From: a virus
DNA length: 64,000 nt
Virus record (IMG/VR): IMGVR_UViG_3300026521_000471
Coordinates: 122,518-186,517 of that record
Reading direction: 5' to 3' (one strand)
Both the position numbers and the translations under genes were made by a program. The first letter of the stretch is position 1; each line of letters begins with the position of its first letter. The notes under the pieces are model-generated. The model saw only the letters and a list, made by a program, of their open reading frames with translations. It ran no database searches and was not told where the DNA came from. Below, one piece after another: positions 2,152-59,301 of the stretch.

Positions 2152-2153
2152 TA

Positions 2154-3958: not shown

Positions 3959-3989
3959 ATTTGTATAATATAATAAAAAAAGGAAGAAT

Positions 3990-4148
3990 ATGGATCATAA
4001 AATTCGAGAATTATTAGAAAAAATCCAACATTTTACAAATAAAGCCGTAGGTTTACTACAAGAAGAAAAATATGATGAAGCCGCTTTTTTCTTTAATCTA
4101 AGTTCTAGTTTAAATTCTGAAATCGCATTACTAATAAAGAGAGATTAA
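3990..4148 (+). CDS. small hypothetical protein (52 aa)
   Basis: ATG after a TTGTATAAT promoter (3962-3969) and AAGGAAG ribosome-binding site. Not in ORF track because it is under 60 aa. Confidence 0.3.
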   Translation: MDHKIRELLEKIQHFTNKAVGLLQEEKYDEAAFFFNLSSSLNSEIALLIKRD

Positions 4149-4150
4149 TA

Positions 4151-5494: not shown

Positions 5495-6805
5495 ATGACA
5501 ACAAATTTAGAATTCGTTTTTTCAGCTTTTCCTCATTATATGAAAATGTGTAGGCAACAGGGTGAGATGTATAAAGCAACAGCCCAGTCAGTCCAAACAT
5601 CAATAGCATATATGAGATCAAAACTCAAAGATAATGTATCTGTAAGTGCTTTATTTAATGCATATACAGAGGAAGATTGTGCTAGAAATGCATCTAATAG
5701 ATTTACAGGTATGAAATCCATTATTGGTAGTAACCTCTATGCTGATAGTGGTGGATTACAAATGATGACTTTAGGACATACAGTTGATGAAGCACAAAGA
5801 AAAAAAATTTATGAAACCCAAATAAAATATGCGACACATGCTATGAGTTTTGATGAAATTCCCGGTATTTTCATTGATAAAAAAAAATATTATAAACCAG
5901 ATACCGTATATAACTGTGGCGTTATTTCTGGGGGAAATTTACTTGAACAGTATAATTTTTTCAAAGAGGCTAGATCAAATACAAAAATTGTGCCAATTAT
6001 TCAGGGATGGGGTTATAAAGATACAGATCTATTTACTCAAGGTTTGATGACAAATTGTAAAAATATTTGGAACGAATTTGATATGTTAGCTGCTGGATTT
6101 CAAAGTTCATCAATTTGGGGAACGGCTCAAAGAGCAATAGATATATATACAAATCCATTACTCAAAAAACAATTTTTAAATCATTATCACATGCTTGGTA
6201 TGAGTGGTTATAAAAGAATAATCCCTATGATAATGATACTTAAAAGCGGATTAATAAAAGATATGAAGACACTTTCATTTGATAGTTCCTCAATATCTAT
6301 GACATATGTAATGGGCAACGTTATAAAATCGACTGATGATTTAATCAATAATAGAAAATATGAATTGGGGAAAGAAAGAACTAAAGAAGTTGAGGATTAC
6401 TATAAAGAGCTGTATGAATTCTGGAAAGATGCACCCAATTGCAATTTTAAAGATTGGGAAGACTTATTAGAAAATTCTCAATGGAATAGTAGGGGTGTTA
6501 AGAGTGCAAAAGCTCGTCATGATGAAACCAATGATATTAATGAATCATTAAAATATCTGACACAAGAACAATATTTTATTTTCTATAATGTATATAAGTA
6601 TGCTATGGTTCTTGAAGATTTTTTAGAGGGTAATATAGAATTATCAGATATATTTAAAGGTAAGGATTTAGAATTATTCAGTCAATTAGAAAAAATAGAT
6701 AATATAGATGATTTCTATGAATGGCAAGATTATGTAAATAAAACACAAAATATAAAATTAGAAATATTTGAGAAAGATAATGATTTTTCAAATATTTTAT
6801 TTTAA
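5495..6805 (+). CDS. tRNA-guanine transglycosylase-fold protein, DpdA-like, paralogue 2
   Basis: YADSGGLQMM and HMLGMSGYKRIIPMI...LSFDSS; collinear paralogue of the upstream gene. Confidence 0.7.
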   Translation: MTTNLEFVFSAFPHYMKMCRQQGEMYKATAQSVQTSIAYMRSKLKDNVSVSALFNAYTEEDCARNASNRFTGMKSIIGSNLYADSGGLQMMTLGHTVDEAQRKKIYETQIKYATHAMSFDEIPGIFIDKKKYYKPDTVYNCGVISGGNLLEQYNFFKEARSNTKIVPIIQGWGYKDTDLFTQGLMTNCKNIWNEFDMLAAGFQSSSIWGTAQRAIDIYTNPLLKKQFLNHYHMLGMSGYKRIIPMIMILKSGLIKDMKTLSFDSSSISMTYVMGNVIKSTDDLINNRKYELGKERTKEVEDYYKELYEFWKDAPNCNFKDWEDLLENSQWNSRGVKSAKARHDETNDINESLKYLTQEQYFIFYNVYKYAMVLEDFLEGNIELSDIFKGKDLELFSQLEKIDNIDDFYEWQDYVNKTQNIKLEIFEKDNDFSNILF

Positions 6806-19408: not shown

Positions 19409-19705
19409 TTATTCTTTTGAAAAAATTCGTTCTGCAAATTGAGTAACAGGTCCTCTAAGAACTTTTTGTAATTCTATACCAAATAGATTTACTTCTTCAT
19501 GTTCTTCTTTTGTAGCATTTAAAAGGGTGGTTAAACCATTAGTATATCTTGTAATATACTGATTATCAATCTGTCTATTTGAACCTAATACAATAACTTT
19601 ACAAGAAGAATCAATACGACTTAATACTAGTTGTAATGTAGAATTACTCATATTTTGAGCTTCATCAATAATTACAATAGCATCTGAAAGTGTTCGACCT
19701 CTCAT
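19409..19705 (-). pseudogene. phoH 3'-end fragment: ~88% aa-identical duplicate of the last ~96 codons of the PIN-PhoH gene at 20493..21920
   Basis: Translation (M)RGRTLSDAIVIIDEAQNMS...ELQKVLRGPVTQFAERIFSKE aligns with the C-terminus of the full gene. Similarity stops exactly at RGR. The fragment has no N-terminal ATPase part. Confidence 0.75.
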
Positions 19706-19727
19706 ACTACCAAAACTTTTTAATAAT

Positions 19728-19736
19728 TGTATAAAT
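19728..19736 (+). promoter_or_regulatory. extended -10-like TGTATAAAT upstream of the GIY-YIG homing-endonuclease gene; the leader closely resembles the one at 863
   Basis: ATTGTATAAATAATATAAAAGGATTAAGG compared with TTTGTATAATAATATAAAAGGATTATTA. Confidence 0.45.
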
Positions 19737-19762
19737 AATATAAAAGGATTAAGGACAAATTC

Positions 19763-20500
19763 ATGATATATACCATATATAAAATCACAAATAAACTAAA
19801 TAATAAAATATATATAGGAGCCCACACAACAGAGGACATTTCCGACAATTATATGGGTTCGGGAGCAATATTAAAAAAAGCTATTGAAAAATATGGGTTA
19901 GATAATTTTTATAAAGAGGTGTTATATACGTTTACAACCGAAGAAGAAATGTATTTAAAAGAAGCAGAGTTAGTTAATGAAGAATTTATTCAACGAGATG
20001 ATACTTATAATTTAAAGGTCGGTGGATATGGAGGATGGTCTTATATTAACGAAAATAAATTAAATAATACAGAAAAAAATAGATTATCAAGATTAAAAAA
20101 TTTGGAAAAAGCAAATGAAGCAAATAAAAAATTAGTTGCTGAAGGGAAGCATAGAAAAGGCTTTAAGATTAGTGCGGAAACAAAATTGAAAATGTCGTTA
20201 AATAAGAATCGGTCATTTCCTGGCGAAAAAAACCCTCAATATGGGAAAAAATGCGTTAATAAAAATGGTAAAAATTTGATGATATTAAAAGAGGAAGTAA
20301 ATGACTATATTAAAAAAGGTTGGGAGTTAGGTCAAATACAAAATAAACCAGATACCAAAGGAAATAAAAATGCGTCCTTTGGTAAAAGCTGGTACACAAA
20401 TGGTGAAGAAAGTAAATTATTAAGCCAAGAAGAGTCAATTAAATACATTTCTTTAGGTTGGACAAAGGGTAGAACATTGAAAAAAAGTAAGACTAGCTAG
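19763..20500 (+). CDS. GIY-YIG homing endonuclease (Seg/I-TevI-like)
   Basis: N-terminal IYKITNKLNNKIYIGAHTT...YNLKVGGYGG is a GIY-YIG module. The Lys-rich C-terminal half resembles a DNA-binding region. Flanked by duplicated phoH 3' sequence. Confidence 0.7.
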   Translation: MIYTIYKITNKLNNKIYIGAHTTEDISDNYMGSGAILKKAIEKYGLDNFYKEVLYTFTTEEEMYLKEAELVNEEFIQRDDTYNLKVGGYGGWSYINENKLNNTEKNRLSRLKNLEKANEANKKLVAEGKHRKGFKISAETKLKMSLNKNRSFPGEKNPQYGKKCVNKNGKNLMILKEEVNDYIKKGWELGQIQNKPDTKGNKNASFGKSWYTNGEESKLLSQEESIKYISLGWTKGRTLKKSKTS

Positions 20501-20520
20501 TCTTACTAAAAATTTTTTCC
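20486..20520. terminator. 22-bp perfect palindrome (AGTAAGACTAGCTAGTCTTACT) spanning both convergent stop codons, with T-runs on both sides (bidirectional terminator-like)
   Basis: Read from the sequence. The homing-endonuclease and phoH reading frames both end ...SKTS within the palindrome. Confidence 0.5.
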
Positions 20521-21920
20521 GCAAATGTTGTTATAGGTCCTCTTAATACTTTCTGTAATTCTATACCGAATAAACTTACTTCTTCATGTTCTTCTTTTGT
20601 AGCATTTAAAAGTGCAGTCAAACCATTCGTATATTTGGTAATATATTGATTATCGATTTGTCTATTTGAACCCAATACAACAACTTTACAAGAAGAATCA
20701 ACCCTAGTCAATGTTAGTTGTAGTGTACTAGTACTCATATTTTGAGCTTCATCAATAATTACAATAGCATTAGATAAAGTTCTTCCGCGAAGTGCACCAG
20801 TCCACATAGTTTCAACTTGATAACGTTCTACTAACTCTTGGACTTTTTCAGATATTCGTTCTTCAGTTACAGTTTCTCCCTTACCAGGCTTATTTTCTTT
20901 TGATTTTTTTAACATTTGACCCGCAATATAAGCAAGAGTATCAAATAATGGGAAATTATATATCTCAAATTTTGCTTCATTCGTTGAAAGATAACCTACA
21001 TCTTCTCCTTTAGCTAACGATTCAACTGAGTTTCTAATATAGACTATACGTTGATATTCTTTACACTTAATCAATTCCATTGCTGCACTAATAGCTAAAA
21101 GGGTTTTACCAGAACCAGCTTTAGCTTCAGCTACAACGATATTATAATGATTATTAAGTAATGCATTACTAAAAAATAATTGTTCGGCATTCATAGGATT
21201 TACATTTTGTTTACGTAATTCTTTTTCATCTAAAAATTGTATTTTATTATTAATTATATAAGCAAGTATTTTTTGCCCGTCTTTATTAAAAATATAATTA
21301 AAATTATTTGGTTTGTGTTCGGAGTTAAAATCTAAAATATTATCTCCCTCTCGAACTTCCTGTCCATTTAAATTAATTTCTTTAATAAAATCTAAAGAAA
21401 TCTCTTTATTTCCTAAATTTAATGGTTCTGTCTCCAGTCCTAAACTTATAGCTCTTGTTCTAGCCATCACATCTAATGATATAAATTTAATATGTTCATA
21501 ATTTATATCCTCTGTATTATGTATTAAATCCAATGTAATTTCTAAGATCTTTCTATCATTTCTTATACTATTACTCGTATTATCAGAATCAGCTTTATAT
21601 ACTTCCTTGGATATAATATGAATAACAGTATCATCTACTTTAGTTTCGATTAAAACTATATCAAATGATTTATTGTTGTCGCTATTTGCTTTTATAACTC
21701 TTTTATCTTTAATTTCCGCATCAAATAACATTCTACCGAACTCTCTGGCTTGGAAATTTATTTCATCCCAACCACTTTTTTTACTATCTATTTCATCTAA
21801 TACTGTTTCTGGTAAAATAATAAGATTTTTACCATTATCCGATAAAGTGAATAGATTTTTTGCGTCGTCAAGTATTATATTTGTATCTAAACAAAATACT
21901 TTTTCAAATTTTTTAGTCAT
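20493..21920 (-). CDS. phoH: PhoH-like ATPase with N-terminal PIN domain (YlaK-type)
   Basis: PIN-like FCLDTNIILDD; Walker A AKAGSGKT; IIDEAQN; C-terminal PhoH signature. Confidence 0.85.
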   Translation of the reverse strand: MTKKFEKVFCLDTNIILDDAKNLFTLSDNGKNLIILPETVLDEIDSKKSGWDEINFQAREFGRMLFDAEIKDKRVIKANSDNNKSFDIVLIETKVDDTVIHIISKEVYKADSDNTSNSIRNDRKILEITLDLIHNTEDINYEHIKFISLDVMARTRAISLGLETEPLNLGNKEISLDFIKEINLNGQEVREGDNILDFNSEHKPNNFNYIFNKDGQKILAYIINNKIQFLDEKELRKQNVNPMNAEQLFFSNALLNNHYNIVVAEAKAGSGKTLLAISAAMELIKCKEYQRIVYIRNSVESLAKGEDVGYLSTNEAKFEIYNFPLFDTLAYIAGQMLKKSKENKPGKGETVTEERISEKVQELVERYQVETMWTGALRGRTLSNAIVIIDEAQNMSTSTLQLTLTRVDSSCKVVVLGSNRQIDNQYITKYTNGLTALLNATKEEHEEVSLFGIELQKVLRGPITTFAEKIFSKTS

Positions 21921-22536: not shown

Positions 22537-23946
22537 TTATTTAAAGTTTTTTAATTCTATTTTTTCAACCTCAAATGGGTATTGAGCCTCTTTATAAAAA
22601 TCTTTTCTAGATTTTATATGTTTTTTATCATATTTTAAATTAGATGTTATATCAATTACTGTAACATGTTCTTTCTGTCCAGATTTTCTTCTAAGCCCTC
22701 TTCCAATCGATTGTATAACTTTTGTAAAACTTTTTCCAGGTGTAGGTGCAAGAATTAAGTTGTTAATATGTACAATATCAATTCCAGTACTAAGTAATGA
22801 ATATGTTCCAACTGTTACTAAATTACCACCATAAACGAATTCATTAAATTTCTCTTGTCTTTTATCAACCGTTAATTTTGAACTAATATAACCACACTCT
22901 AGAAATTCTGATAAATCTTCAGCCGGATCTATATTCTTCATCAATATCAATGTGTTACCTTCTAATGAATCAACAATGGCTTTCATTAATTTTTGAAACA
23001 TTTCATTACTTTGTAAAAAAACAGTCTCTTCATGCCAGTCAATAAATGAGCCTAAATATTCTTTAGGGTAAACCAATTCAAAAATATTAATATCTATTGA
23101 AGATAATATATTTCTCTTTTGTAATTCATGTGCTTTTACATCATAAACCACAGGACCAAAACCAGCTGTTAAATTAGCTTTGTCTAAAGGATCTTTTGGC
23201 ACAGTACCCGTCAAACCTATTCTCAAATATGAATTTTTTGCCTCATTCATAATTTGTTGAGCTACATATGCTTTAGCGCCATGTACTTCATCCCATATCA
23301 CACATTCAAAATCTCGTATAAAATGTTTATTATTTTGTAGTGTTTGCCAAGTAGCCACAATATTAATTTCATTATCTTTTTTACCACTACCAAACATACC
23401 GACAGGAATATCAAATTGTTTTATATAATCAAATGTCTGTTTTAACAATGATGATGATGGTACAATGACAATCGTTTTCATATTTAGTTTATTGGCATAT
23501 TTAACGATAGCTGATGTCAATAAGGTATTATGATGAACTGTTCCATTTGCTATTTGATATAAATGATTTTCAGAATTAACTTCGACATCATATAATAAAC
23601 CCTGTTCATTTAGATTCTCTATATTTGTAACTACTGCCATATGTTTTTCATCAACATTATATAATCTATCACCTATAGACAATTCATTGACTTTTTTTAT
23701 AGTTTGGTCATCTAACATTAAGATATGATTATCAGTAGTTATTATATTCTCTATTGCATCAATCTCTAGCTTTATTAAATTATCCTCTTTTACAATAAGA
23801 CCTTTAATATCAACCCATTTACCGACCTCATCTTGAATTTGAATTGGTGTACGTTGAAAATATTCCTCATCTCTACGAAATGCAATATCTTCTTCTAACG
23901 ATATTATTTTAAATAATTGTTCAAAAGTTAATTCTATTTCTTCCAT
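22537..23946 (-). CDS. C-terminal fragment of a split SF2 (UvsW-like) DNA helicase: 137-aa C-intein (IntC) followed by helicase motifs Ia-VI
   Basis: A TAA lies immediately upstream of the ATG. Residues 1-137 carry intein block B (TTDNHILM) and blocks F/G (LLYDVEVNSENHLYQIANGTVHHN). The +1 Thr then starts TLLTSAIVKYA...TIVIVPSSSL (motif Ia), DEVH (motif II), GLTGT (motif III) and QSIGRGLRR (motif VI). The P-loop (motif I) is absent and is found in the N-fragment at 39479..40027. Confidence 0.8.
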   Translation of the reverse strand: MEEIELTFEQLFKIISLEEDIAFRRDEEYFQRTPIQIQDEVGKWVDIKGLIVKEDNLIKLEIDAIENIITTDNHILMLDDQTIKKVNELSIGDRLYNVDEKHMAVVTNIENLNEQGLLYDVEVNSENHLYQIANGTVHHNTLLTSAIVKYANKLNMKTIVIVPSSSLLKQTFDYIKQFDIPVGMFGSGKKDNEINIVATWQTLQNNKHFIRDFECVIWDEVHGAKAYVAQQIMNEAKNSYLRIGLTGTVPKDPLDKANLTAGFGPVVYDVKAHELQKRNILSSIDINIFELVYPKEYLGSFIDWHEETVFLQSNEMFQKLMKAIVDSLEGNTLILMKNIDPAEDLSEFLECGYISSKLTVDKRQEKFNEFVYGGNLVTVGTYSLLSTGIDIVHINNLILAPTPGKSFTKVIQSIGRGLRRKSGQKEHVTVIDITSNLKYDKKHIKSRKDFYKEAQYPFEVEKIELKNFK

Positions 23947-26024: not shown

Positions 26025-26624
26025 TCAATTATAAGGTTCTATATTAAATTCTTCAAATAGAACCTTAAGCCCAACAGTTAATTTTCCCGACTTTGGAAAG
26101 TCAGGAAATTTTTTCTTTCGTCCACTCAATCCATATTCTTTTTTTAATTTATTATAATTTCGTTTAGATACCTTTTGAGCTTTTGGTTCTTCTGATGGAT
26201 GTATATAAAAATTTCCTTCTTCATCTTGATATGCACCAGCTTCTAAATAATCTGCTAAATTTCGTAAAAAATCTGGCAAACTGATCGGGTGGTTAGTTTC
26301 ATCTGCTCCGAAATATCTTTTCCAGTTATTTGTGATTTTTCCTTCCATTGCATTTGCCCTAAACTCTAAAGCATTTCTAATCGTACCTTTTTGTTCAGAA
26401 CATTCTTCATTTTTTAATTTATGAATATGATCTAATACCATTTTATCGAGTTCAACCTCAATTCCTAATAATGGACATATTTTATTATTTTCTAACCATA
26501 ATTTTTCTTTTAATTCTTTTATATTTTTCTGTTTTAATTGTATTAATTGTTTCATAGTTTTATTTATATGATAAAAATTGTAAAATTGATATAAAAAAAA
26601 TAAGGTTTTGTAATGGATGAGCAA
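26025..26624 (-). CDS. putative His-Me finger nuclease (HNH / T4 endonuclease VII-like)
   Basis: ICPLLG...VLDHIHKL...EEC loosely resembles the endo VII CxxC...HLDHDHEL core. Free-standing on the minus strand between plus-strand genes. Confidence 0.35.
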   Translation of the reverse strand: MLIHYKTLFFLYQFYNFYHINKTMKQLIQLKQKNIKELKEKLWLENNKICPLLGIEVELDKMVLDHIHKLKNEECSEQKGTIRNALEFRANAMEGKITNNWKRYFGADETNHPISLPDFLRNLADYLEAGAYQDEEGNFYIHPSEEPKAQKVSKRNYNKLKKEYGLSGRKKKFPDFPKSGKLTVGLKVLFEEFNIEPYN

Positions 26625-28034
26625 ATAGATGATACAGAATATGAAGACGCTTTAGCCGAATTAGAGGCAGAATCATCTTCAAAAAAGAAAAAGAAGAAAA
26701 AAACAGTTGAACATTCAGAAGGCAAACTATTAGATATTGAAGATAAAGAACGAATTTTACTTGCTCAACTTATTAATAACCCAGAATTATTTGTTAAAGG
26801 TATAACTTTTCTAGATAAAGATTTCTTTGAATCAAAAATTAATAAATTAATTGTGGAATTTATGATTGATTATTATGATTTATATAAAAGTATCCCGCCT
26901 GAAGATGCTATACTATTAGAATTAAATTTAGATAACGTACATGATGATTGGTTAGATATAAATAAACCTTGGCCAACAGAGTATCTTGAAGACTATTTAA
27001 ATGCGTTTATAAAAAATATGAGTATGAAAGGTGCTATCGAAGATAGTATTGAATTACTAGAAGAAGAAGATTATGGAACTATTGAGAAGAAGATTAAAGA
27101 TGCTGTAAACGTTGATATTGATACAAAGTTAGGTGTAACCATAGATACTGATAAAGATAATTTTCGTGACTTATTTAAAATGCTAACATCAACTGAAGCT
27201 ACAATTCCAACTGGATGGTGGAACGTAGATGATAAATTAGATGGTGGTGTAACAATACCAAGTTTAAATTATTTATTAGCTAAATCTGGTGGTGGTAAAT
27301 CAATAGGTTTAATAAATTTAGCATGGAATTATATTCAGATGAAAAGGGATGTTATTTATATTTCTCTAGAACTAAAGGAAGAGAAAATCATGAAGAGGTA
27401 TATAACCCACTCAACTAAAATTCCGACCCATCAAATTGAAAAGTCTGAGATGGAAATTTATAACCATCTAAAGAAATGTGATAATAAGGGGTATGGTCGA
27501 TTTACTGTTCATTTCTATCAACCCAATACACTAAGTGCAATGAAGTTGGAATTATTTGTAAGAAATTATTTACAAAAATATAATACAGTACCTATTATTA
27601 TTCTAGATTATGCAGGTTTAATGACACCAAATGGTAAAAATTGGCAAGGTATGTTTGAAAAAGATAAATATGTTTCTGAAGAATTAAGAGCTGTGGCAAC
27701 GTTATTTGATACGATCGTTTGGACAGCAGACCAATATAATAGATGTATATCATTTGGTGAACAGGTAATAACACCGAATGGTAAAAAAAATATTGAAGAT
27801 GTTGAAATAGGGGATAAAGTTCTTGGGGGCAATAATAGTTATCGTACTGTAACAGCGATAACGGAGCCGGAAGAACAAGAAGTATATAAAATTACTTTAA
27901 AAAGTGGAAAAACTATCAAAGTATCAGGAAGACATATCTTCCCAAAAGTTTTAGAAGATGGGAAATTAGTAGAAGATTGCATATTATCTTCATTAAGTAT
28001 AGGTGACAAGTTGGTGGTCTCCGATAAAATATGA
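26613..28034 (+). CDS. DnaB / T4 gp41-like replicative helicase N-extein, interrupted after the QxNR motif by the N-terminal half of a classical split intein (IntN ~99 aa)
   Basis: TGWWNVDDKLDGG...LLAKSGGGKSIGLINLA (Walker A), IIILDYAGLM (Walker B), ...WTADQYNR. This is followed by CISFGEQVITPNGKKNIEDVEIGDKVLG (intein block A), TLKSGKTIKVSGRHIFP (block B) and ...SIGDKLVVSDKI, then a stop. Confidence 0.75.
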   Translation: MDEQIDDTEYEDALAELEAESSSKKKKKKKTVEHSEGKLLDIEDKERILLAQLINNPELFVKGITFLDKDFFESKINKLIVEFMIDYYDLYKSIPPEDAILLELNLDNVHDDWLDINKPWPTEYLEDYLNAFIKNMSMKGAIEDSIELLEEEDYGTIEKKIKDAVNVDIDTKLGVTIDTDKDNFRDLFKMLTSTEATIPTGWWNVDDKLDGGVTIPSLNYLLAKSGGGKSIGLINLAWNYIQMKRDVIYISLELKEEKIMKRYITHSTKIPTHQIEKSEMEIYNHLKKCDNKGYGRFTVHFYQPNTLSAMKLELFVRNYLQKYNTVPIIILDYAGLMTPNGKNWQGMFEKDKYVSEELRAVATLFDTIVWTADQYNRCISFGEQVITPNGKKNIEDVEIGDKVLGGNNSYRTVTAITEPEEQEVYKITLKSGKTIKVSGRHIFPKVLEDGKLVEDCILSSLSIGDKLVVSDKI

Positions 28035-28270: not shown

Positions 28271-28795
28271 ATGCTAGTTATTAAAGCTATACAATTTGCA
28301 GCAGAAAAACATAAAGGTCAAGAACGAAGATGTTCTGGATTACCCTATGTAACACATCCAATTATTGTATCTCAACTAATTGCAAAATATAAAAATGGCT
28401 CTAAAAAGCTAGATGAATTACAATGTGCTGGATTACTCCATGATGTTTTAGAAGATACAGATTGTACATATTCTGAGTTAGAGCGGGAATTTGGTCCATT
28501 AGTAGCTTCAATAGTCGTTGAATTAACGTCAGATCCTGTAGCAATTAAGCAGCTAGGTAAGAATGAATATTTAAAGCAAAAAATGATTAAAATGTCTAAA
28601 TATGCTTTTATCATAAAATTAATAGATCGACTTTCAAATGTTTTAGACAAACCTGGAGAGTCATATGTTAAAAAGACGTTAAATATGATGGAATTTCTTA
28701 AAAAAAATCGTCCTGATATAACTGAACGGCAATTAAGAATTATAAATGAGATAGAAAATGTGTGTCTGGAGTTTCAAAAAAATGAGTGTAAGTAA
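28271..28795 (+). CDS. HD-domain (p)ppGpp hydrolase-like protein (RelA/SpoT HD family, small alarmone hydrolase)
   Basis: AAEKHKGQERRCSGLPYVTHPIIV...AGLLHDVLEDT...EREFGPLVASIVVELT matches the RelA/SpoT HD-domain signature. Confidence 0.65.
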   Translation: MLVIKAIQFAAEKHKGQERRCSGLPYVTHPIIVSQLIAKYKNGSKKLDELQCAGLLHDVLEDTDCTYSELEREFGPLVASIVVELTSDPVAIKQLGKNEYLKQKMIKMSKYAFIIKLIDRLSNVLDKPGESYVKKTLNMMEFLKKNRPDITERQLRIINEIENVCLEFQKNECK

Positions 28796-29333: not shown

Positions 29334-31511
29334 ATGGATGTTAAATATTTTTTAGAAAAATTAGGAAGTTTATTAATTATTGGATTTGTTATTATATCCA
29401 CGTCTATTATACTTTATTTTAGCTATAAGTCAAATAATAAAGATATTATGGATGACATTGACAATAATTTACGCCACGAATTGATTATTTTATCTATTGC
29501 GTCCGAAGATTTGTTTAACAAATATAACAATATACTTACAATGTTAGGGGATAATATTTTATCCAAAGATAATAAACAAAAATATTTAGATACAGCATTA
29601 AAATTAGAAACTGATGCAGTGGGCTATGGTTTTATATCACCCGAAGGTAATATATTAATTAACTCCTCAAACGTCGATATAAAGAAGATCTCTAATTTTA
29701 TCTCCAACCCCAAAACTAAAGGAACATTTCTTAAAACTATAAAATCAAAATCATCAATTTTAGGACGGTCATATTTATTTAAACCGACAAATCAATTAAT
29801 TGTACCAATAAGAAAAAGTATTAGGAAAAATTCAAAAGTATATGGTGTACTAGCGGTAGGCATTAATATAAATAAGTCGTTTTCTAATTTATTTACAAAT
29901 AAAATACATAACAATTCTATAATTTTATTAATCAAAAATAACTCAGCTAGAATTCAATATTCAAACGATAATACGTTCGAAATAGATTCTATTTTAAAAA
30001 CCGATAATCCTCGACTTTTTAAAACTATAAATCAAATGACATTGACTAATACATCATTAAATAATATAAAATATAGGGTAGGTGTAAAATTTATTGAAAA
30101 ATACAATCTATGGCTTGTTATAGGCTTTCCTTCAAAAGTTATATCTTCATTAAAAAATGAATGGTTAATAAATGCTGTATCTATATGGTTTGTTTTTAAC
30201 GTAAGTTTTATTATAATGATATTAATTATTAATAAGATTAATAACGATCGGAAAAATGAATTGGAATATATTTCTATACATGATCCATTAACACATATTG
30301 GAAATAGATATTATTTAAATAAGAAAATAGTCGATTACGAAGAATATAGTATGCTATTTTTAGATCTAGACAATTTTAAATTTATAAATGATAACTTCGG
30401 ACATAATTACGGAGATAAATTTTTAGTTTCTATAGCAACAGAACTTAAAAAAAATATTTCTGCTGATGATTTATTAATACGTTTTAGTGGTGATGAATTT
30501 ATAATTATTACTAGGGAAATGAATAAAGATAAATTATTAAGTTTTGCTAAAAGATTATTGAATATGACTAATGAGAAATTTAAATATGAGCATAAGACAA
30601 CCATGAGTATTGGTATTGCACAACGAGAGGGATCTGAAGATCTACATAATGTAAAATATAAAGCAGATTTAGCTTTATATATAGCAAAAGAAGAACTAAA
30701 CACCATTATATTCTATGATAAAAATATAGAAGAATCATTTAAAGAAGAACATTTAATAGAAAATGAACTATTAGAAGGTATTATTTTAAAAGAAATTTTC
30801 ATGGTTTATCAACCACAATTAAATACTAAAAATAAAATCGTAGGAATAGAAGCATTAGTTCGATGGAATAATTCAAAGTTAGGTTATATAAATCCCGAGA
30901 CATTTATCAAAATCGCTGAAAAAAATGGAAATATGATAATTTTAGGTGATCATATATTAAATCAAGTTTTTAGTGATATTAATACATTTAAAAATATAAT
31001 TCCAGATAATTTTAATATATCTATTAATATTTCTGTTAAACAATTTATGGAAGATAACTTTGTACAAAAATTAAAGGATAAATTATACCAATATAAAGTC
31101 AATCCAAATAATATCACATTAGAAGTAACAGAAAATATATTTATTTTAGATTTAAACTATATGGAACAAATAATAAATGATTTGCATACATTGGGTGTAA
31201 AAATTTCTATTGATGATTTTGGAACAGGATACTCTTCTTTATCTTCTGTTAAACATCTGACTATTGATGAAATAAAGATTGATAAATCTTTTGTAGATAA
31301 TATTGAAAACGACCATAGTTCCAAAAGTATGGCTGAAGTAATTATTAAAATGAGTAAAATTTTTAATACCATTATTTTAGCTGAAGGTATAGAAAATATC
31401 AAACAAAAAGAAATTCTTGATAACTTAGGGTGCGATTTCTACCAAGGATATTACTTTTCAAAACCTTTACCATTAACAAAATTAAAAGAGTTCATAAAAA
31501 ATAATATTTAA
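29334..31511 (+). CDS. membrane-anchored sensor protein with GGDEF (SGDEF variant) and EAL domains (c-di-GMP cyclase/phosphodiesterase family)
   Basis: Two predicted transmembrane segments flank a ~250-aa extracytoplasmic region. GGDEF domain: HDPLTHIGNRYYL, LDLDNFKFINDNFGHNYGDKFL, RFSGDEF. EAL domain: EALVRW, LEVTENI, DDFGTGYSS, KIDKSFV, AEGIEN, QGYYFSKP. Confidence 0.8.
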   Translation: MDVKYFLEKLGSLLIIGFVIISTSIILYFSYKSNNKDIMDDIDNNLRHELIILSIASEDLFNKYNNILTMLGDNILSKDNKQKYLDTALKLETDAVGYGFISPEGNILINSSNVDIKKISNFISNPKTKGTFLKTIKSKSSILGRSYLFKPTNQLIVPIRKSIRKNSKVYGVLAVGININKSFSNLFTNKIHNNSIILLIKNNSARIQYSNDNTFEIDSILKTDNPRLFKTINQMTLTNTSLNNIKYRVGVKFIEKYNLWLVIGFPSKVISSLKNEWLINAVSIWFVFNVSFIIMILIINKINNDRKNELEYISIHDPLTHIGNRYYLNKKIVDYEEYSMLFLDLDNFKFINDNFGHNYGDKFLVSIATELKKNISADDLLIRFSGDEFIIITREMNKDKLLSFAKRLLNMTNEKFKYEHKTTMSIGIAQREGSEDLHNVKYKADLALYIAKEELNTIIFYDKNIEESFKEEHLIENELLEGIILKEIFMVYQPQLNTKNKIVGIEALVRWNNSKLGYINPETFIKIAEKNGNMIILGDHILNQVFSDINTFKNIIPDNFNISINISVKQFMEDNFVQKLKDKLYQYKVNPNNITLEVTENIFILDLNYMEQIINDLHTLGVKISIDDFGTGYSSLSSVKHLTIDEIKIDKSFVDNIENDHSSKSMAEVIIKMSKIFNTIILAEGIENIKQKEILDNLGCDFYQGYYFSKPLPLTKLKEFIKNNI

Positions 31512-34202: not shown

Positions 34203-34204
34203 TT

Positions 34205-36337: not shown

Positions 36338-36346
36338 TTTGTACTC

Positions 36347-37807: not shown

Positions 37808-37855
37808 TTTTTAAATAAAATGTAAAATATTACTATAATCAATTAAAGGCTTAAA

Positions 37856-38881: not shown

Positions 38882-39486
38882 AACTCGAAACATTAATTTC
38901 AACAGTTAAAGATAAAATTATATACAAAATGGATTTCTATCAATCTATTATTATTATTAATGTTCCAAAGCAAAAAATTTTAAATAAAGGTACTATAATT
39001 TTTTTGCTAAATAAACAATCAGGTGTATTATCTGGAGAATGGTTTAATAATAAAAATAGCAATATAAAATTATTTGGAATTCTAAATAATAAATTTATAA
39101 AATCCATATTAAAAAATAAAAAATTAAGATTATTAAATAGTATCTTACCTGATGTATTAGTCAATAAAGATTTTATAATAGAATATAAATTTCTTTCACC
39201 AGAAGAGAAAAAATTATTGAAAGAGTATATAATATCTTCTGAAGAACAAATACACAACAAGTATATGACATTTGATAATAAATTTAATAAAGTCTCTTGG
39301 GAACAAAGCATTAAACTATCTTCTAACTATTTTGTAGAATGGTGTAAAGATAGCTCAAATATACAAGATTGTATTAAAAATGCAATCAACATTGCTAATA
39401 AAAATTTAGATATAAATTTAAAACGCAGAGCAATTTTAAATAAATGTTTTATAGATATTAGAAAATGGAGAGAAAAAAATGGCTAA
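38878..39486 (+). CDS. hypothetical protein
   Basis: ORF track. Confidence 0.4.
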   Translation: MKLETLISTVKDKIIYKMDFYQSIIIINVPKQKILNKGTIIFLLNKQSGVLSGEWFNNKNSNIKLFGILNNKFIKSILKNKKLRLLNSILPDVLVNKDFIIEYKFLSPEEKKLLKEYIISSEEQIHNKYMTFDNKFNKVSWEQSIKLSSNYFVEWCKDSSNIQDCIKNAINIANKNLDINLKRRAILNKCFIDIRKWREKNG

Positions 39487-40027
39487 AAAAAAGAAAAATA
39501 TACCTATCCATATTACAAAACGTGATTCATCAACATTTGTTTTAAATAAGATTTCGTCTAGTATGTTATATCATGTACAACAAAAATTCGCATATTTACC
39601 ACCAGGTTATAAATTTCAACCTAGATTTAGACTTATGGGTATTAAAGGTGTACAAGTTAAGCTAGTACACGCAGATGGTTCATTCCCAATGGGATTATTT
39701 TCAGAAGTTGTAGAATATTTAACAGAGGTGCAAAAAAAGAAAGTTACTATGAGCAGTGAAGTAATGGAACATTTTTTACCACTAACTGATTTTTTTGAAG
39801 ATGGTATAAAAGATGATATATTCTCAGACTATGAATTCGATGGTAATCCTGTAATATTAAGAGATTATCAATTAGGTGCAGTTGAAGCCGCTTTTGAAAA
39901 TAGAAACGGCTTATTAAATTTATCTACTGGTGCAGGTAAGTGCTTAGGTGGTGAAACTAAAATACGAGTAAAATTAAGTAGTGAACTAATTAAAAAATAT
40001 AAAGTTATTATAAAAGGCGAATTATGA
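39479..40027 (+). CDS. N-terminal fragment of the split SF2 (UvsW-like) helicase: Q-motif and P-loop, followed by a 28-aa N-intein (IntN)
   Basis: ...RDYQLGAVEAAF...LLNLSTGAGK then CLGGETKIRVKLSSELIKKYKVIIKGEL and a stop. CLGGETKIRV fits intein block A (C-L-x-G-[DE]-T-x-[IV]) directly after the Walker A lysine. The matching IntC and C-extein are at 22537..23946 on the minus strand. Confidence 0.75.
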   Translation: MAKKKKNIPIHITKRDSSTFVLNKISSSMLYHVQQKFAYLPPGYKFQPRFRLMGIKGVQVKLVHADGSFPMGLFSEVVEYLTEVQKKKVTMSSEVMEHFLPLTDFFEDGIKDDIFSDYEFDGNPVILRDYQLGAVEAAFENRNGLLNLSTGAGKCLGGETKIRVKLSSELIKKYKVIIKGEL

Positions 40028-40314: not shown

Positions 40315-40517
40315 TGATAACTGAAATTATAAGATTTAACTGTCATGTATTAAAGGTAAATAAATATAACAAAATAACTCCTGATGAATTGTTATTAGAA
40401 TATAAAACTCGTAACAACCTTATTTTAGAAAATACGGAAGTATATGTTGAAAGCTGTAAATGGGCTGCTGGAAGTACTAGTACTATTATAACAAAAGTGA
40501 AAAGGATAGAAAAATGA
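40314..40517 (+). CDS. hypothetical small protein
   Basis: ORF track. Confidence 0.35.
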   Translation: MITEIIRFNCHVLKVNKYNKITPDELLLEYKTRNNLILENTEVYVESCKWAAGSTSTIITKVKRIEK

Positions 40518-40963
40518 CTTATGCTCAAAATAAAAAGGCTAGATTTAATTATGAAATCATAGAAATATTTGAAGCAGGGATTGTACTAACAGGTGGTGAA
40601 GTAAAATCTGTAAGAGATAGTACAATTTCTCTTAAAGAAAGCTATGTTAAAATAAAAAATAATGAATTATTTTTAACTCAAGCTCATGTTTCAGTCCCTA
40701 CATACATACCATCATATGCAGTATTTGATGAAGTCCAAGATAGAAAATTGTTAATGCATAAAAGAGAGATTTTAAAACTTAAAAATAAATTGAAAGAACA
40801 GGGTTTGACTTTAATTGTATTATCAATTTATCAACGTGAAGGCACAAAAAAGATAAAAGTACAGTTGGCATTAGCTAGAGGTAAAAAATTATATAATAAA
40901 AAACAAACTATCAAAGAACGTGATATTAAACGAGATATGGAAAGAACATTAAAAAAATTCTAA
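40514..40963 (+). CDS. smpB: SsrA-binding protein SmpB
   Basis: KKARFNYEIIEIFEAGIVLTGGEVKSVR...LLMHKREILKLKNKLKEQGLTLIVLSIYQREGT.KIKVQLALARGKKLYNKKQTIKERDIKRD aligns along its full length with bacterial SmpB. Confidence 0.85.
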   Translation: MTYAQNKKARFNYEIIEIFEAGIVLTGGEVKSVRDSTISLKESYVKIKNNELFLTQAHVSVPTYIPSYAVFDEVQDRKLLMHKREILKLKNKLKEQGLTLIVLSIYQREGTKKIKVQLALARGKKLYNKKQTIKERDIKRDMERTLKKF

Positions 40964-43071: not shown

Positions 43072-44325
43072 ATGGCTATTTTACAGCTCCATTCTGATGA
43101 TCCAAATTTTGGATACATTATCAAAAAAAACCCAAATTCATCTATGCAAATAAGAAGTATACGTAAAGGTACTGCTTTTACATGGTATTCTCATAATGGT
43201 ACCGACTTTAATATTTATTTTAAAGATGCTGATAATGATGTATCGTTTGGATCGCAAGAATTCGATTATCTAAATATTTCTAAATATAATTCACCGATGT
43301 TTATTATCAATGCAATAAGTGAGTTTTTTTCAAGTACTGTTAGAGAAGAATCAGAATTAGATATAAAAAGTTCAAAATATTTTTATATTAACTTACTTGA
43401 AATCAAAAGAATAAAACAATTAATGGATTTTAAGAAATATTTCCCTGATTTTGAAATTGAAATTACCGAACAAGTTGGGAAAAATTATACTATTAAAGTA
43501 ATAACTGAAAATAGTTGGTTTATGTTATTAAATTATATTAATCTTATGATGATTTTTATTGCATTATCAAGTAACGACTACGTACATTTAGATAGTTCAA
43601 ATATTGAAAAATATCTAAATGCTATGAATCGATTGGATGCACCATTTTTTATACGTTATTTAGTAAGTAGAAATCTTATTAAAAGTAAAAACCAATTTAA
43701 AAAATATAAACAATTACTTGAAAAATCAAAAAGATATAATATCAATATGGCATATGGTAATACGGCTATGCAACGGAAAGACAAAATAGAACGTTTATTA
43801 TCATTTGATAAATCGATTCTTGATATTGGGTGTGGAGAAGGTTTTTATGCTATAGATTTTTCTAAAAAAATAGAAAAATATTCTTATAATGCCATTGACA
43901 TTAATCCTAATCTATTAGAGTCGATCAAGATAAAAGCTTCAAAAAAAGAAATTACAAATATTAATCTCTTTAATAGTCTAGAAGATTTTATAAAGATTTA
44001 CAATGATGAGTTAGTAGATATAATACTAACTGAAGTTATTGAACACATGCCAAAAGATGAATCAAAAAGATTAATAGAGACAGTATTGATGTCTATTAAT
44101 TTTAATACATTCATTATTACCGTACCAAATAAAGACTTTAATATTTTTTATGAATTAGGTGATGAAATGAGACATGATGATCATGACTGGGAACCTACAT
44201 TTGATGAATTTAAAAATTTTATAGCTAATTTTAATAATGATGGTTTATCTTTTGAATTTATAGAAATAGGTGATACTATCGATGGTATCTCTACAAGTAT
44301 CGGTTGTATAATTAAAAAGGTATAA
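43072..44325 (+). CDS. hen1: Hen1-like RNA 3'-terminal 2'-O-methyltransferase (bacterial Hen1 architecture: N-terminal domain plus C-terminal Mg-dependent methyltransferase)
   Basis: C-terminal domain: ILDIGCGEGFYAIDF (SAM motif I), LTEVIEHMPKDE (the Hen1 EVIEH metal motif), MRHDDHDWEPTFDEF (Hen1 HxDHxFEWTxxEF). The ~240-aa N-domain is consistent with the ligase-activating domain. Confidence 0.8.
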   Translation: MAILQLHSDDPNFGYIIKKNPNSSMQIRSIRKGTAFTWYSHNGTDFNIYFKDADNDVSFGSQEFDYLNISKYNSPMFIINAISEFFSSTVREESELDIKSSKYFYINLLEIKRIKQLMDFKKYFPDFEIEITEQVGKNYTIKVITENSWFMLLNYINLMMIFIALSSNDYVHLDSSNIEKYLNAMNRLDAPFFIRYLVSRNLIKSKNQFKKYKQLLEKSKRYNINMAYGNTAMQRKDKIERLLSFDKSILDIGCGEGFYAIDFSKKIEKYSYNAIDINPNLLESIKIKASKKEITNINLFNSLEDFIKIYNDELVDIILTEVIEHMPKDESKRLIETVLMSINFNTFIITVPNKDFNIFYELGDEMRHDDHDWEPTFDEFKNFIANFNNDGLSFEFIEIGDTIDGISTSIGCIIKKV

Positions 44326-46102: not shown

Positions 46103-48793
46103 ATGAATAAAATTAAAACACAAGTACATACTATAATAATGCTTATTGGACCTAGTGGTTCTGGTAAAACAACATTCGCTAATGAAATTCTAATACCCAC
46201 ATTACAAGAATATAAAGGTAGTGGAAATGACAATTTAAAAACAAATATACAATATATTAGTTCTGATGATATTAGAAAAGATATTTTAGGATATAATTAT
46301 AGTAAAATAGATGAAATTATGACTGAAAGTTCAACACAAGCATTTGAAATATTATTTACAAAATTAAGAGCTGTTACTAGTTATCCAATCAATGCTGAAT
46401 TTGTTATTTTAGATACAACTGGATTAAGTGAAAAATTTAGAAATGATGTTTTAGATATAGCAAAAGATAATAATTATAATGTCGATATTATAGTTTTCGA
46501 TTATAAGAATATTGATGAATATCAGAAAAATTTTTCTGATGAAGTTTATCAACAACCTAGTACTAATGGCAAAATTATTTCTAAGCATATAAAAAGATTA
46601 AAAACAGAAACATTAAAAACATTAAAAAAAGGTGTATATAAAAATATTCATAAAATTAAAAATAAAGATTTTCTTTTAGAAGTTGAACAGGAGAATCCAT
46701 ATGATTTAACACCTACTATGTTAAAACCTCTTTATAGTGTAGATGTATGGGATTGGAAAAAATATACTGATAGAATATTAAATAGTACTTATGATTGGAT
46801 TACTATTGGTGATGTTCATGGATGTATTCATGAATTAAAACAATTACTTGAAAAATATGGTTTTATAATTGAAGACAATGAAATCATAGATACAAACAAA
46901 ACAAAAAATATAGGATTGATTTTTGCAGGTGATTTAATTGATAAGTCGTCAGAAGAAGATTTAACTGAAACTATAAGATTTATACATAAAAATATGATAA
47001 AATTTCAAGATCGTTTTCAATTAATATTAGGTAATCATGAAGAGATGGTCTGGAAATGGATAACAAATCATAAAGATTTAGAAATTACTCCAGAACGATT
47101 GGATCAGAAAAAAAGATACTATAATACAGCAATTTTACTAGAGAAAAATGAAGAGTTAAAATCTATGTTTTTAGATATTTTTCATAATATGAAAGGTTGG
47201 GTTAAATTTATAGGATTAAACAAAAGAAGTTTTGTAGTTACACATGCACCATGTGAGGTTAAATATCTCGAAAAAATGGATCGTATTTCATTAAAACGTC
47301 AATATAAATGCGCTAGTAGAAGTAAAAACAAAGATAAGACTAATGATGAACTAACACCATATTTAAAAGAAGAAGCAGTTAATAACCATCCAGTTCACAT
47401 ATTTGGTCATATGGGACAATCATCTGTTAGATCTTTTAAAAATAAAGTTTGTATTGATACAGGCTGTGTATATGGTGGAAGATTAACTGGATACAGTATA
47501 GGATACGGTAAACCATTTATTCAAAGTGTAAAATCATTATCTCCTAAGAGTGCAAGAAACGACTTTGGAAATAATCTATTTGAAGATATAGGTAAAGCTA
47601 TAAAAGAAGTATCTATTGAAGATTTAAATCCATACAACCAAAAAAGATTAGATTATATAGTAAAAAATGGCATAGGATACATAGGAGGTACAATTTCACC
47701 TTCAAATAAAAACATCGAAAAAAATTCACTAGAATCTTTAGATAGTGGACTTAATTATTTCAAAGATAAAGTAGATAGTGTAGTTCTACAACCTAAATAT
47801 ATGGGGTCTAGAGCACAACTGTATCTCTTTAAAGATAATATTGAAAAATGCTATGCTACAAGTAGAAATGGATATAAAATTAGAGAGGACTTAACTGATT
47901 TATTCTCATCTAAATTAATAGAATACAAGCATATTTTTGATATGTATAATGCTGATGAGATAATTATAGATGGTGAATTATTACCATGGGCTCTTTTAGG
48001 AAAAGGTTTGATAGAAACACATTTTAAAACTGCGGATATAGCTATCCAAACAGAAATCGACTTTCTGGATGATAATGGGTTTGATAAGGCTTTTTTAAGT
48101 TTAAAGGATGAATTTAATGAATCAGAATTTTTAAAAGATAAAAATATTTTAGCTAAAAAAGAATTAGCTAAAAAATATGGTCACAAATATCACTCTTATA
48201 AAGATTTAAAATTTGAAATTGATAGATTCATACCTTTAAGTAAACACAAAAAAGCTTGGAAAATTTTCAATAAACAAATAACCCTTTATGGAGATGATAC
48301 AAATACAGATTTTAAAGGTTTTAGATTATTAAAAGTAATATCAAATAACAATATAATCGATTTGGATCTAACCCCTAGCGAACACTTTAAACTATTAAAT
48401 TCAGATGATATTCATATTGTTGATTTCAATGATAAAGACTATTTAGTTAAAGCTGAAAGATGGTATGATGATTTAGTGAGTAATCAAAATATGGAAGGTT
48501 GTGTAATAAAACCGGAAGTAAAGTTATTAGAATCTTGGATTGCTCCATATTTAAAAGTAAGAAATGAAGAATATCTTTCTATCATTTATGGGTATGATTA
48601 TAAATTCCCTGTCAAATTTAATAGATTATTAAATCAAAAAAATATTTCTAAAAAATTAAGACTCTCTATATCAGAGTATAAATTAGGAGAAGAAATGCTT
48701 AAAGCTCCTATGGGTAGTAAAGAACAAATACAGATTATAGCCAATCTATTATTTGAAAATGAAAAAGAAGAAAGCGTCGATCCAAGATTATAA
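46103..48793 (+). CDS. pnkp: bacterial-type polynucleotide kinase-phosphatase-ligase (Pnkp): P-loop 5'-kinase, metallophosphatase, and adenylyltransferase/ligase domains
   Basis: IMLIGPSGSGKTTFAN (kinase P-loop). ITIGDVHGC, IFAGDLIDK and LGNHEE (calcineurin-like phosphatase). C-terminal ...VVLQPKYMGSRAQLY (nucleotidyltransferase KxxG motif I). At 896 aa with this domain order it matches Clostridium-type Pnkp. Confidence 0.85.
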   Translation: MNKIKTQVHTIIMLIGPSGSGKTTFANEILIPTLQEYKGSGNDNLKTNIQYISSDDIRKDILGYNYSKIDEIMTESSTQAFEILFTKLRAVTSYPINAEFVILDTTGLSEKFRNDVLDIAKDNNYNVDIIVFDYKNIDEYQKNFSDEVYQQPSTNGKIISKHIKRLKTETLKTLKKGVYKNIHKIKNKDFLLEVEQENPYDLTPTMLKPLYSVDVWDWKKYTDRILNSTYDWITIGDVHGCIHELKQLLEKYGFIIEDNEIIDTNKTKNIGLIFAGDLIDKSSEEDLTETIRFIHKNMIKFQDRFQLILGNHEEMVWKWITNHKDLEITPERLDQKKRYYNTAILLEKNEELKSMFLDIFHNMKGWVKFIGLNKRSFVVTHAPCEVKYLEKMDRISLKRQYKCASRSKNKDKTNDELTPYLKEEAVNNHPVHIFGHMGQSSVRSFKNKVCIDTGCVYGGRLTGYSIGYGKPFIQSVKSLSPKSARNDFGNNLFEDIGKAIKEVSIEDLNPYNQKRLDYIVKNGIGYIGGTISPSNKNIEKNSLESLDSGLNYFKDKVDSVVLQPKYMGSRAQLYLFKDNIEKCYATSRNGYKIREDLTDLFSSKLIEYKHIFDMYNADEIIIDGELLPWALLGKGLIETHFKTADIAIQTEIDFLDDNGFDKAFLSLKDEFNESEFLKDKNILAKKELAKKYGHKYHSYKDLKFEIDRFIPLSKHKKAWKIFNKQITLYGDDTNTDFKGFRLLKVISNNNIIDLDLTPSEHFKLLNSDDIHIVDFNDKDYLVKAERWYDDLVSNQNMEGCVIKPEVKLLESWIAPYLKVRNEEYLSIIYGYDYKFPVKFNRLLNQKNISKKLRLSISEYKLGEEMLKAPMGSKEQIQIIANLLFENEKEESVDPRL

Positions 48794-58773: not shown

Positions 58774-58941
58774 ATGAAATACGGTTTTAGTTTATTTGAA
58801 TTAATTATTGTAGTTGTAATATTGGGAATTCTAGCAGCAGTTGCTATTCCTAGATTATCAAATTCTTCATCAAATAATGATAAAATTTCATACAAAAAAA
58901 TAATTTTTACTAATGGTGATGGTGGATCCGCCGAGAATTGA
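58774..58941 (+). CDS. short type IV pilin/pseudopilin-like ORF (55 aa): prepilin leader and N-terminal hydrophobic helix only
   Basis: MKYG|FSLFELIIVVVILGILAAVAIP is a canonical class III signal peptide with Glu at +5. The 3' end overlaps the tmRNA 3' terminus. Not in ORF track because it is under 60 aa. Confidence 0.35.
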   Translation: MKYGFSLFELIIVVVILGILAAVAIPRLSNSSSNNDKISYKKIIFTNGDGGSAEN

Positions 58942-59301
58942 ACTCGGGTCTGCCACTACTTCCATTTAAATCTCATTTACAAGTTTAGTTTGATTTTTAA
59001 TACTTTAATACTTAGATAACCAAACAAATCGGTATTAAAGGCACTTGATATAATTTTCGTCTAAAGGTATCAAGTTTAACTTTAGCTTATCTATTTTTTA
59101 TTATACACTCTGTATTTATTAGTAAATAGACAACTAATAAACTGAGTGATTCCGGGCTCCCAGAGGGAGGATTAAGCAGCTACTCTCGCAGTCTGTGGAA
59201 TATAAAGTTTTGTGTTTGCATTTAAGCTTTTTTGATGATTAAGTCATCACTCTACTTGCAATTTAAATTTCTTATAGCAACATCGATCCCAATTCGGACC
59301 C
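58920..59301 (-). ncRNA. ssrA: tmRNA (SsrA), 382 nt
   Basis: Minus-strand 5' end GGGUCCGAAUUGGGAUCGAUG resembles the tmRNA 5' end GGGGCUGAUUCUGGAUUCGAC. The 3' end is ...CCGAGUUCAAUUCUCGGCGGAUCCACCA (T-arm plus acceptor plus CCA). The acceptor stem pairs with a G3:U70 wobble (alanine identity). An internal tag ORF (59219..59172) reads GCA AAC ACA AAA CUU UAU AUU CCA CAG ACU GCG AGA GUA GCU GCU UAA, giving ANTKLYIPQTARVAA, followed by a CUCCC/GGGAG helix. Confidence 0.8.

Follow-up and report, generated by a model that had tools for sequence, protein, structure and literature searches.

How can one helicase be made from two genes that lie far apart on opposite strands, when neither encodes a complete nucleotide-binding P-loop? 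This question is raised by the window analyzed here, the whole 64,000-nucleotide stretch of the viral record IMGVR_UViG_3300026521_000471 (IMG/VR; positions 122,518 to 186,517), in which a UvsW-type superfamily 2 (SF2) helicase is encoded as an N-half and a C-half. Each half carries one piece of a putative intein, a short N-terminal fragment (IntN) in the first and a long C-terminal fragment (IntC) in the second. The feature is very probably a class 1 intein that is naturally split in the atypical manner, at the S1 site with a short IntN, and resides in a jumbo-phage helicase gene. We infer that it splices from its conserved motifs and its predicted fold.

The two half genes and their predicted product

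The extein part of the N-half open reading frame (ORF) ends ...NRNGLLNLSTGAGK (...LLNLSTGAGK), at the Walker A lysine, which is followed directly by CLGGETKIRVKLSSELIKKYKVIIKGEL and a stop codon that shares bases with the start of the next ORF (ATGA). The C-half ORF begins with IntC (MEEIELTFEQLFKII...), which terminates in ...NGTVHHN (...YDVEVNSENHLYQIANGTVHHN), and continues into the C-extein as TLLTSAIV... (TLLTSAIVKYANK...). The predicted masses of the N- and C-fragments are 20.6 kDa and 53.8 kDa, respectively. The gap between the two genes (23946 to 39479) spans 15.5 kb and approximately 20 genes. Pfam recognizes UvsW_N in the N-fragment (E=1.3e-7), and ResIII (E=1e-10) and Helicase_C (E=1.5e-8) in the C-fragment, and both fragments fall in DNA helicase families of PHROG (PHROG 16 for the C-fragment, E=8e-57). 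Feature coordinates are listed in Table 1. The original prediction, made from the sequence and its ORFs, had described an N-half that ends at the Walker A lysine and is followed by a 28-residue IntN and a stop codon, which the translation bears out. Its C-intein of 137 residues proved to be 140 residues long, and its partner gene about 16 kb away is on the other strand as claimed, at the somewhat shorter distance of 15.5 kb.

In-silico joining of the two exteins yields a 54.9 kDa protein of 483 residues, rather than the ~510 first estimated, with the P-loop GAGKT restored (...STGAGK-TLLTSAIV...). This protein contains the UvsW N-terminal domain, Walker A, DExH and Helicase_C elements of a UvsW-type SF2 helicase. 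Its top match in the PDB is T4 UvsW (2OCA, E=5.7e-28, residues 27-464), with which it is colinear and shows no gap at the junction. The alignment with the intein-free Phosso helicase of a Sinorhizobium phage (...ATGAGKTLLTATL..., ATGAGKTLLT) is likewise gapless over the junction, with 35% identity across it. Judged from the sequence, the predicted intein interrupts the helicase exactly between the Lys and Thr of Walker A, and Thr+1 of the intein junction doubles as the Walker A threonine. Because the halves are far apart on opposite strands, a single-chain helicase is obtainable only via trans-splicing, and because a complete P-loop is absent from either fragment alone, ATPase activity should depend on splicing. 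The earlier description of obligate trans-splicing of an essential helicase therefore stands as regards trans-splicing to a single chain, while "essential" was an unsupported assumption. T4 uvsW mutants are viable and the gene is dispensable in T4.

Intein motifs and predicted fold

All class 1 landmarks are present: Cys1 in block A (GAGK/CLGGETKI, the slash marking the splice junction), TTDNH, Asp120 and His128, His139-Asn140, and Thr+1. An AlphaFold2 model of IntC alone, calculated with 72 aligned sequences, has a mean predicted local distance difference test score (pLDDT) of 91.8 and displays the HINT fold. When this model was compared with the PDB using Foldseek, 50 of the 50 matches listed were inteins or bacterial intein-like HINT domains, among them RadA, GyrA, Prp8, VidaL, gp41-1, Npu DnaE, Cat and PolB16. 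A family profile built from 14 full inteins matched VidaL best (6vgv, E=1.8e-12), followed by gp41-1 (6qaz, E=3e-10), Cat (6dsl, E=4.4e-8) and PolB16 (8cpn, E=6e-7). The net charges of IntN and IntC are +4 and -18, respectively (ortholog medians +2 and -14), and charge complementarity of this sort is typical for natural split inteins.

Position of the split

Atypical splits are defined by Mootz and co-workers as S1, exemplified by VidaL and PolB16, or S2, located after helix α1 and exemplified by AceL and GOS TerL (PMC13014065). Residues 8-19 (FEQLFKIISLEE) form the first structured element of the IntC model, a helix that corresponds to α1. The first β-hairpin thus precedes the split and α1 follows it, which leaves a short IntN and a long IntC, as in S1 inteins. 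An S2 split of the AceL type was considered, since the 28-residue IntN resembles the 25-residue IntN of AceL, and was ruled out because α1 is encoded in IntC. The intein is split at the gene level, with a stop codon after IntN, a Met that starts IntC, and separate genes with one extein each.

At the same Walker A site, other UvsW helicases (P0294, P0319, P0320, P0321 and P0095) carry contiguous inteins of this family, and such inteins are also found in other ATPases. The alignment with contiguous mini-inteins proposed at the outset was carried out, and the concatenated IntN and IntC align end to end with these five UvsW inteins. The split in the window maps to a linker whose length varies by roughly 25 residues among family inteins. 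In the model of the contiguous precursor P0319 the order of elements is a β-hairpin (CVSYDTLIEID), a short extra helix (SEFGKYLLK), a strand and α1, and the window's split maps between the extra helix and the strand that precedes α1. By this model, the 28-residue IntN would consist of a 12-residue core hairpin (CLGGETKIRVKL) and a 16-residue tail (SSELIKKYKVIIKGEL) equivalent to the extra helix. The 28 residues do align with the family, only about 12 of them constituting the canonical block A hairpin and the rest the conserved extra helix. The central claim, that an SF2 helicase is split after its Walker A lysine by an intein whose IntN is very short and whose IntC is long, holds.

Conservation among relatives

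With the N-fragment as query, 71 clusters were retrieved, which share 43-96% identity with it and are about 124-218 residues long (nearly all about 160-190). In 70 of the 71, the sequence ends with G[AS]GK/C and an IntN of 14-32 residues (median 26). Cys1, which is Cys155 of the ORF, is invariant in 72 aligned N-fragment sequences. In the same set Lys173 and Tyr174 each reach 90% conservation or more, and the tail motif in the relatives is P-x-x-[LI]-x-x-K-Y-K-H-L. The most divergent relatives carry an IntN of only 14-16 residues (CLGGDMKIKVKIDDK), a VidaL-like length that leaves no tail. The C-fragment search returned 60 clusters that start with an IntC of 122-148 residues, every one of which has HHN/T, and His74, His139 and Asn140 are invariant or at least 90% conserved across the wider family. 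The intein diverges at 2-4 times the rate of the extein while the catalytic residues stay fixed throughout; identity to P0213 is 49% in IntC and 88% in the C-extein, and identity to P0249 is 36% and 61%, respectively.

Some relatives contain a second intein at motif II (WDE/C), which is either split, yielding a three-piece helicase (P0293 and P0273), or contiguous (P0237). P0004 was also noted in this context, and the helicase of the window has an intact DEVH.

Both loci were compared by megablast with 50,697 phage records and gave no match, so this collection holds no close sequenced relative. A scan of IMG/VR with the C-fragment alone gave no match, and a scan with the alignment found only distant helicases at 30-38% identity, none from the window's clade.

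Genomic layout and host phage

The two-gene layout was seen again in independent assemblies from ENA, Logan, JGI and NCBI, and three layouts are compared in Table 1. In all three contigs the N-half follows a PD-(D/E)XK nuclease gene and the C-half lies beside PhoH. The halves are 10 to 16 kb apart in each, which indicates that their separation is old in the clade. That the halves lie on opposite strands in the window is due to an inversion of the C-half/PhoH segment. The contigs that carry relatives measure 221-262 kb in several cases and 496 kb in one, and a 100% identical copy is on a 224-kb contig; contigs of such size identify the host as a jumbo phage. The window itself is phage-like, with a guanine-plus-cytosine (GC) content of 27%, genes for topoisomerase II, PhoH, DnaB and ligases, and members of PHROG families.

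Table 1 Coordinates of the split helicase gene, of other features in the window, and of related loci.
Sequence	Feature	Position	Strand	Remarks
Window	N-half ORF	39479..40027	+	182 residues; 154-residue N-extein, 28-residue IntN, stop
Window	N-extein, UvsW helicase, residues 1-154	39479..39940	+	UvsW N-terminal domain, motif Q/I, Walker A up to Lys154 (STGAGK)
Window	IntN, 28 residues and stop codon	39941..40027	+	CLGGETKIRVKL, block A β-hairpin; SSELIKKYKVIIKGEL, conserved amphipathic tail, KY motif
Window	C-half ORF	22537..23946	-	469 residues; divergent from N-half, 15.5 kb apart
Window	IntC, 140 residues	23527..23946	-	α1 FEQLFKIISLEE; block B TTDNH, His74; block F YDVEVNSENHLY, Asp120 and His128; block G VHHN, His139-Asn140
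Window	C-extein helicase, ORF residues 141-469 and stop	22537..23526	-	Thr+1 completing Walker A (GAGK/T), motif II DEVH, Helicase_C
ENA ERZ27262639 k141_278161 (140 kb)	N-half and C-half			same layout as window
NCBI JACCDW010215491.1 (261 kb)	N-half	50938-51483	-	divergent, 10.7 kb apart
NCBI JACCDW010215491.1 (261 kb)	C-half	62186-63619	+
JGI Ga0486129_000021 (89 kb)	N-half	27036-27521	-	15-residue IntN
JGI Ga0486129_000021 (89 kb)	C-half	38769-40175	-	same strand, C-half gene 11.2 kb upstream
L095	RecA locus	2798..5317		N-fragment, 289-residue ORF, IntC-RecA
L097	ClpB locus	964..5242		N-fragment, 364-residue ORF, IntC-ClpB
Window	Paralogous ORF	4151..5482	+	443 residues, PHROG 10773
Window	Paralogous ORF	5495..6805	+	436 residues, PHROG 10773
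Window	98-residue ORF	19409..19705	-	duplicate of PhoH C-terminus
Window	GIY-YIG endonuclease ORF	19763..20500	+	SegE-like, NUMOD3
Window	PIN-PhoH gene	20493..21920	-	beside C-half region
Window	DnaB-like replicative helicase ORF	26613..28034	+	473 residues, C-terminal IntN
Window	Small HD-domain protein	28271..28795	+	RelA/SpoT-like
Window	Membrane protein	29334..31511	+	725 residues, GGDEF and EAL-like regions
Window	SmpB gene	40514..40963	+	Pfam SmpB
Window	Hen1-like RNA 3'-end methyltransferase	43072..44325	+
Window	Pnkp-like kinase/phosphatase/ligase	46103..48793	+	896 residues
Window	tmRNA, full-length	58920..59301	-	Rfam RF00023, 115.5 bits

Proposed splicing mechanism and alternative explanations

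In the proposed mechanism, the two genes would be expressed separately as an N-fragment and a C-fragment, and the basic IntN would dock on the acidic, largely pre-folded IntC. The 12-residue β-hairpin would complete the HINT fold, with the amphipathic tail helix adding affinity. Cys1 would then form a thioester with Lys154, which would be attacked by Thr+1; cyclization of Asn140 would free the intein pieces, and an O-to-N shift would yield the 483-residue helicase with its P-loop GAGKT intact.

Several observations weigh against this interpretation. The Pfam family Intein_splicing scores 31.2 bits on the C-fragment, below its curated cut-off of 35.8, and a single-sequence search of the PDB retrieved PolB16 alone, at E=0.1. 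With Pfam and single-sequence matches this weak, the intein assignment is carried by the motifs, the family profile and the predicted fold. Cys1 paired with a Thr+1 nucleophile is less usual, and such inteins may be slow. The docking role suggested for the tail derives from its conservation and from the model of the contiguous relative P0319, not from a model of this pair, and the existence of relatives with a tail-less IntN of 14-16 residues means that the tail is not universally required. The spliced product itself is a prediction from the sequence.

Among the alternatives, the one that fares best grants that splicing is real and adds that it is regulatory, the halves belonging to different transcription units so that active helicase appears only when both are expressed. 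Such a role would fit the maintenance of the halves more than 10 kb apart across a deep clade, the placement of the C-half beside PhoH and of the N-half in a block that runs from the PD-(D/E)XK nuclease to SmpB, and the clean on-switch that completion of a P-loop by splicing would make. Against it, promoter and terminator scans of the window, at its 27% GC, performed no better than on shuffled sequence, promoter-like sites being no commoner in the window than after shuffling. Moreover, a split intein is hard to remove with precision, which fully accounts for its persistence and makes a benefit to the phage unnecessary. A regulatory function is unlikely.

It is considerably less probable that the intein pieces no longer splice and serve instead as a non-covalent dimerization module, or that the helicase works as two subunits held by a reassembled inactive HINT domain. 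Along with the indirect nature of the evidence for splicing, the rapid divergence of the intein (35-49% identity in IntC where the exteins show 51-88%) and the reduction of some IntN pieces to 14-16 residues would be compatible with lost activity. The residues of the chemistry have all been kept, including the invariant Cys1, the HHN/T of every C-fragment and the invariant block B His. Furthermore, a 168-residue HINT domain retained in the P-loop would part Lys154 from Thr+1 and block nucleotide binding.

An artefactual split, produced by misassembly, a frameshift or a sequencing error, or else a pseudogene that decays after a rearrangement broke it, might be suspected in metagenomic assemblies with the halves on opposite strands near mobile-element activity (the gene of a GIY-YIG endonuclease and a duplicate piece of PhoH, 2-4 kb away). 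Either is scarcely credible, since proteins and layout alike are identical in several independent assemblies and samples, about 70 N- and 60 C-fragment diverged clusters have clean ORFs with a stop after IntN and a Met that starts IntC, and the extein identities (51-96% for the C-extein, 42-97% for the N-extein) are indicative of purifying selection.

A wider family of P-loop inteins

The intein of the window belongs to a large family that targets the P-loops of many ATPases. An exhaustive IntC search of 1.84 billion cluster representatives gave 139 matches. In 103 of these the matched region starts no later than residue 20 of the protein, and 100 of them have Met as the first residue; among the same 103, IntC ends in HHN in 92, with Thr at position +1 in 78 and Ser in 15. 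The family is mostly split, with about 90 clusters of split relatives at 50% identity clustering. Pfam analysis of 92 family members identified P-loop NTPase hosts, namely AAA_2/ClpB (17), AAA_5 (14), RecA (6), SF2 helicases (5-6) and PhoH (3), as well as terminase, DnaB, clamp loader, ABC ATPase and SNF2.

Two loci have the pieces in tandem, with an IntN of 33 or 26 residues. At the RecA locus, an N-fragment that ends ...NSAGK/CLTYETYTNLMVEDDFYQYLKSRGFIQDGAEKT and a stop is followed by a 289-residue ORF with NUMOD3 and a TnsA-like nuclease domain, and then by IntC-RecA. At the ClpB locus, the N-fragment ends ...PTGVGK/CLAKDEKIKVRVSNKLLKVLQQNGLI and a stop, and the intervening 364-residue ORF (weak DUF559, Vsr-like) precedes IntC-ClpB. 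Dassa et al. (2009; PMC2677866) proposed that an intein is split by a free-standing endonuclease gene that is afterwards lost, and that the halves then become dislocated. The tandem RecA and ClpB loci have the fractured-gene layout of that study, here at the S1 site, and fit its model, in which the UvsW gene of the window would stand at the last stage. An endonuclease gene would thus have invaded and split the intein, and in the UvsW clade the endonuclease would later have been lost and the halves moved apart. Neither Pfam nor a comparison with the endonuclease-like ORFs from the RecA and ClpB loci revealed an endonuclease remnant next to either half in the window.

On this basis, it may be proposed, with about even chances of being right, that the intein is one member of a large and apparently undescribed family, mostly split with a short IntN, that targets Walker A P-loops. 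Its hosts would include ClpB/ClpX-type AAA+ proteins, MoxR-like AAA_5, RecA, UvsX-like proteins, DnaB, PhoH, clamp loader, terminase, SNF2, ABC ATPase and UvsW, and the S1 split would arise when free-standing endonuclease genes enter a variable loop past a docking helix specific to the family. If correct, the proposal would explain where atypical split inteins originate, would tie their split sites to the endonuclease-driven gene-breaking route proposed for canonical split inteins, and would give protein engineers dozens of new natural inteins with a short IntN. Natural split inteins whose IntN is the size of a peptide are highly valued as tools for the semisynthetic labelling of proteins and for editing proteins in living cells. 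The intein of the window is cysteine-dependent with Thr+1, and the 12-residue core of its IntN may suffice, given the relatives with 14-16 residues. As regards phage biology, a repair and recombination helicase is kept as two distant pieces across a jumbo-phage clade.

Neighbouring genes

The GIY-YIG endonuclease ORF lies between the PIN-PhoH gene and the 98-residue ORF, which is a high-identity duplicate of the PhoH C-terminus. Together, the endonuclease ORF and the duplicated PhoH piece (19409..21920) look like a homing-endonuclease insertion footprint. SmpB is conserved beside the UvsW N-half in relatives, and the window also encodes a full-length transfer-messenger RNA (tmRNA) with the tag ANTKLYIPQTARVAA.

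The DnaB-like replicative helicase has an intact P-loop and a C-terminal IntN of canonical size, ~93 residues (…DQYNR/CISFGEQVITPNGKK…VVSDKI, stop), for which no IntC partner was found within the window. DnaB of the relative P0030 is in three pieces, which include a P-loop short-IntN intein.

The Hen1-like and Pnkp-like proteins form an RNA-repair pair that is also found in the 261-kb relative. The 725-residue membrane protein adjoins the small HD-domain protein, the motifs of both having been assigned by eye. The two adjacent paralogous ORFs belong to a PHROG family of unknown function.

Comparison with known inteins

The literature covered here lists about five natural atypically split inteins, including AceL TerL, GOS TerL, VidaL and PolB16, and Cat as an engineered consensus (PMC13014065, PMC11923092). 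The rarity of short-IntN inteins asserted in the original prediction is thus true of the literature and does not extend to the sequence databases, which contain the split clusters counted above. Neither a UvsW Walker A member nor the large family is described in PMC13014065, PMC11923092, PMC10189870 or PMC11766414, the original VidaL descriptions being outside this scope.

Canonical split inteins of phage genes, such as gp41-1, NrdJ-1 and IMPDH-1 (PMC2677866), also break their host genes. They differ in having their split at the canonical endonuclease site, with about 100 residues in IntN and about 40 in IntC, and in residing at one locus. The window was examined as a fractured gene in the sense of Dassa et al., with the halves in their original order at a single locus and usually an endonuclease gene of its own between them, and does not qualify, with halves 15.5 kb apart on opposite strands and no endonuclease signature in the neighbouring ORFs. 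The ATPase P-loop inteins (DnaB site b, MCM site a and RFC, among others; Novikova et al. 2016, PMC4760082) likewise insert in Walker A and use the P-loop Ser/Thr as the +1 nucleophile, but those described are contiguous and occur in cellular genomes, whereas the present intein is split and phage-borne.

The AceL-TerL and GOS-TerL inteins share a natural short IntN (25 and 37 residues, respectively) and an origin in phage-like metagenomic genes, and the Cat consensus (6dsl) matches the family profile. In contrast to the window's intein, with α1 in IntC, they are split at S2 with α1 in IntN (PMC13014065), and their host is the terminase large subunit. PolB16 OarG (8cpn) has a natural S1-type split with a 15-residue IntN and is the nearest PDB chain by single sequence; it differs in being cysteine-less (Ser1/Ser+1), in having an IntC of 168 residues and in residing in a PolB polymerase rather than a P-loop (PMC10189870).

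The closest resemblance is to VidaL (VidaL_T4Lh-1, 6vgv/6vgw), which is also naturally split at S1, cysteine-dependent and equipped with a short IntN. Foldseek superimposes VidaL on the window's IntC with a root-mean-square deviation of 2.1 Å and a structure-based identity of about 23%, and the IntC of VidaL likewise starts with M-x-E-E...V-T-V-x-E-L. The VidaL split (...VVQIRLTKKG / MIEEKKVTVQELRELY, its position inferred from the published 16-residue IntN) has the same architecture as that in the window, and the chain ...VVQIRLTKKG MIEEKKVTVQELRELYL... follows the same design of hairpin, split, and strand plus α1. The two differ in the IntN, which has 16 residues in VidaL and 28 in the window with the added conserved helix (PxxLxxKYKHL), and in the C-intein end, SHN in VidaL and HHN in the window; a single-sequence search misses VidaL. 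The window intein is therefore a further S1-type naturally split intein and a distant relative of VidaL, distinguished by its conserved helical IntN extension, by a UvsW P-loop insertion kept through a jumbo-phage clade, and by dislocated halves whose gene order is even permuted.

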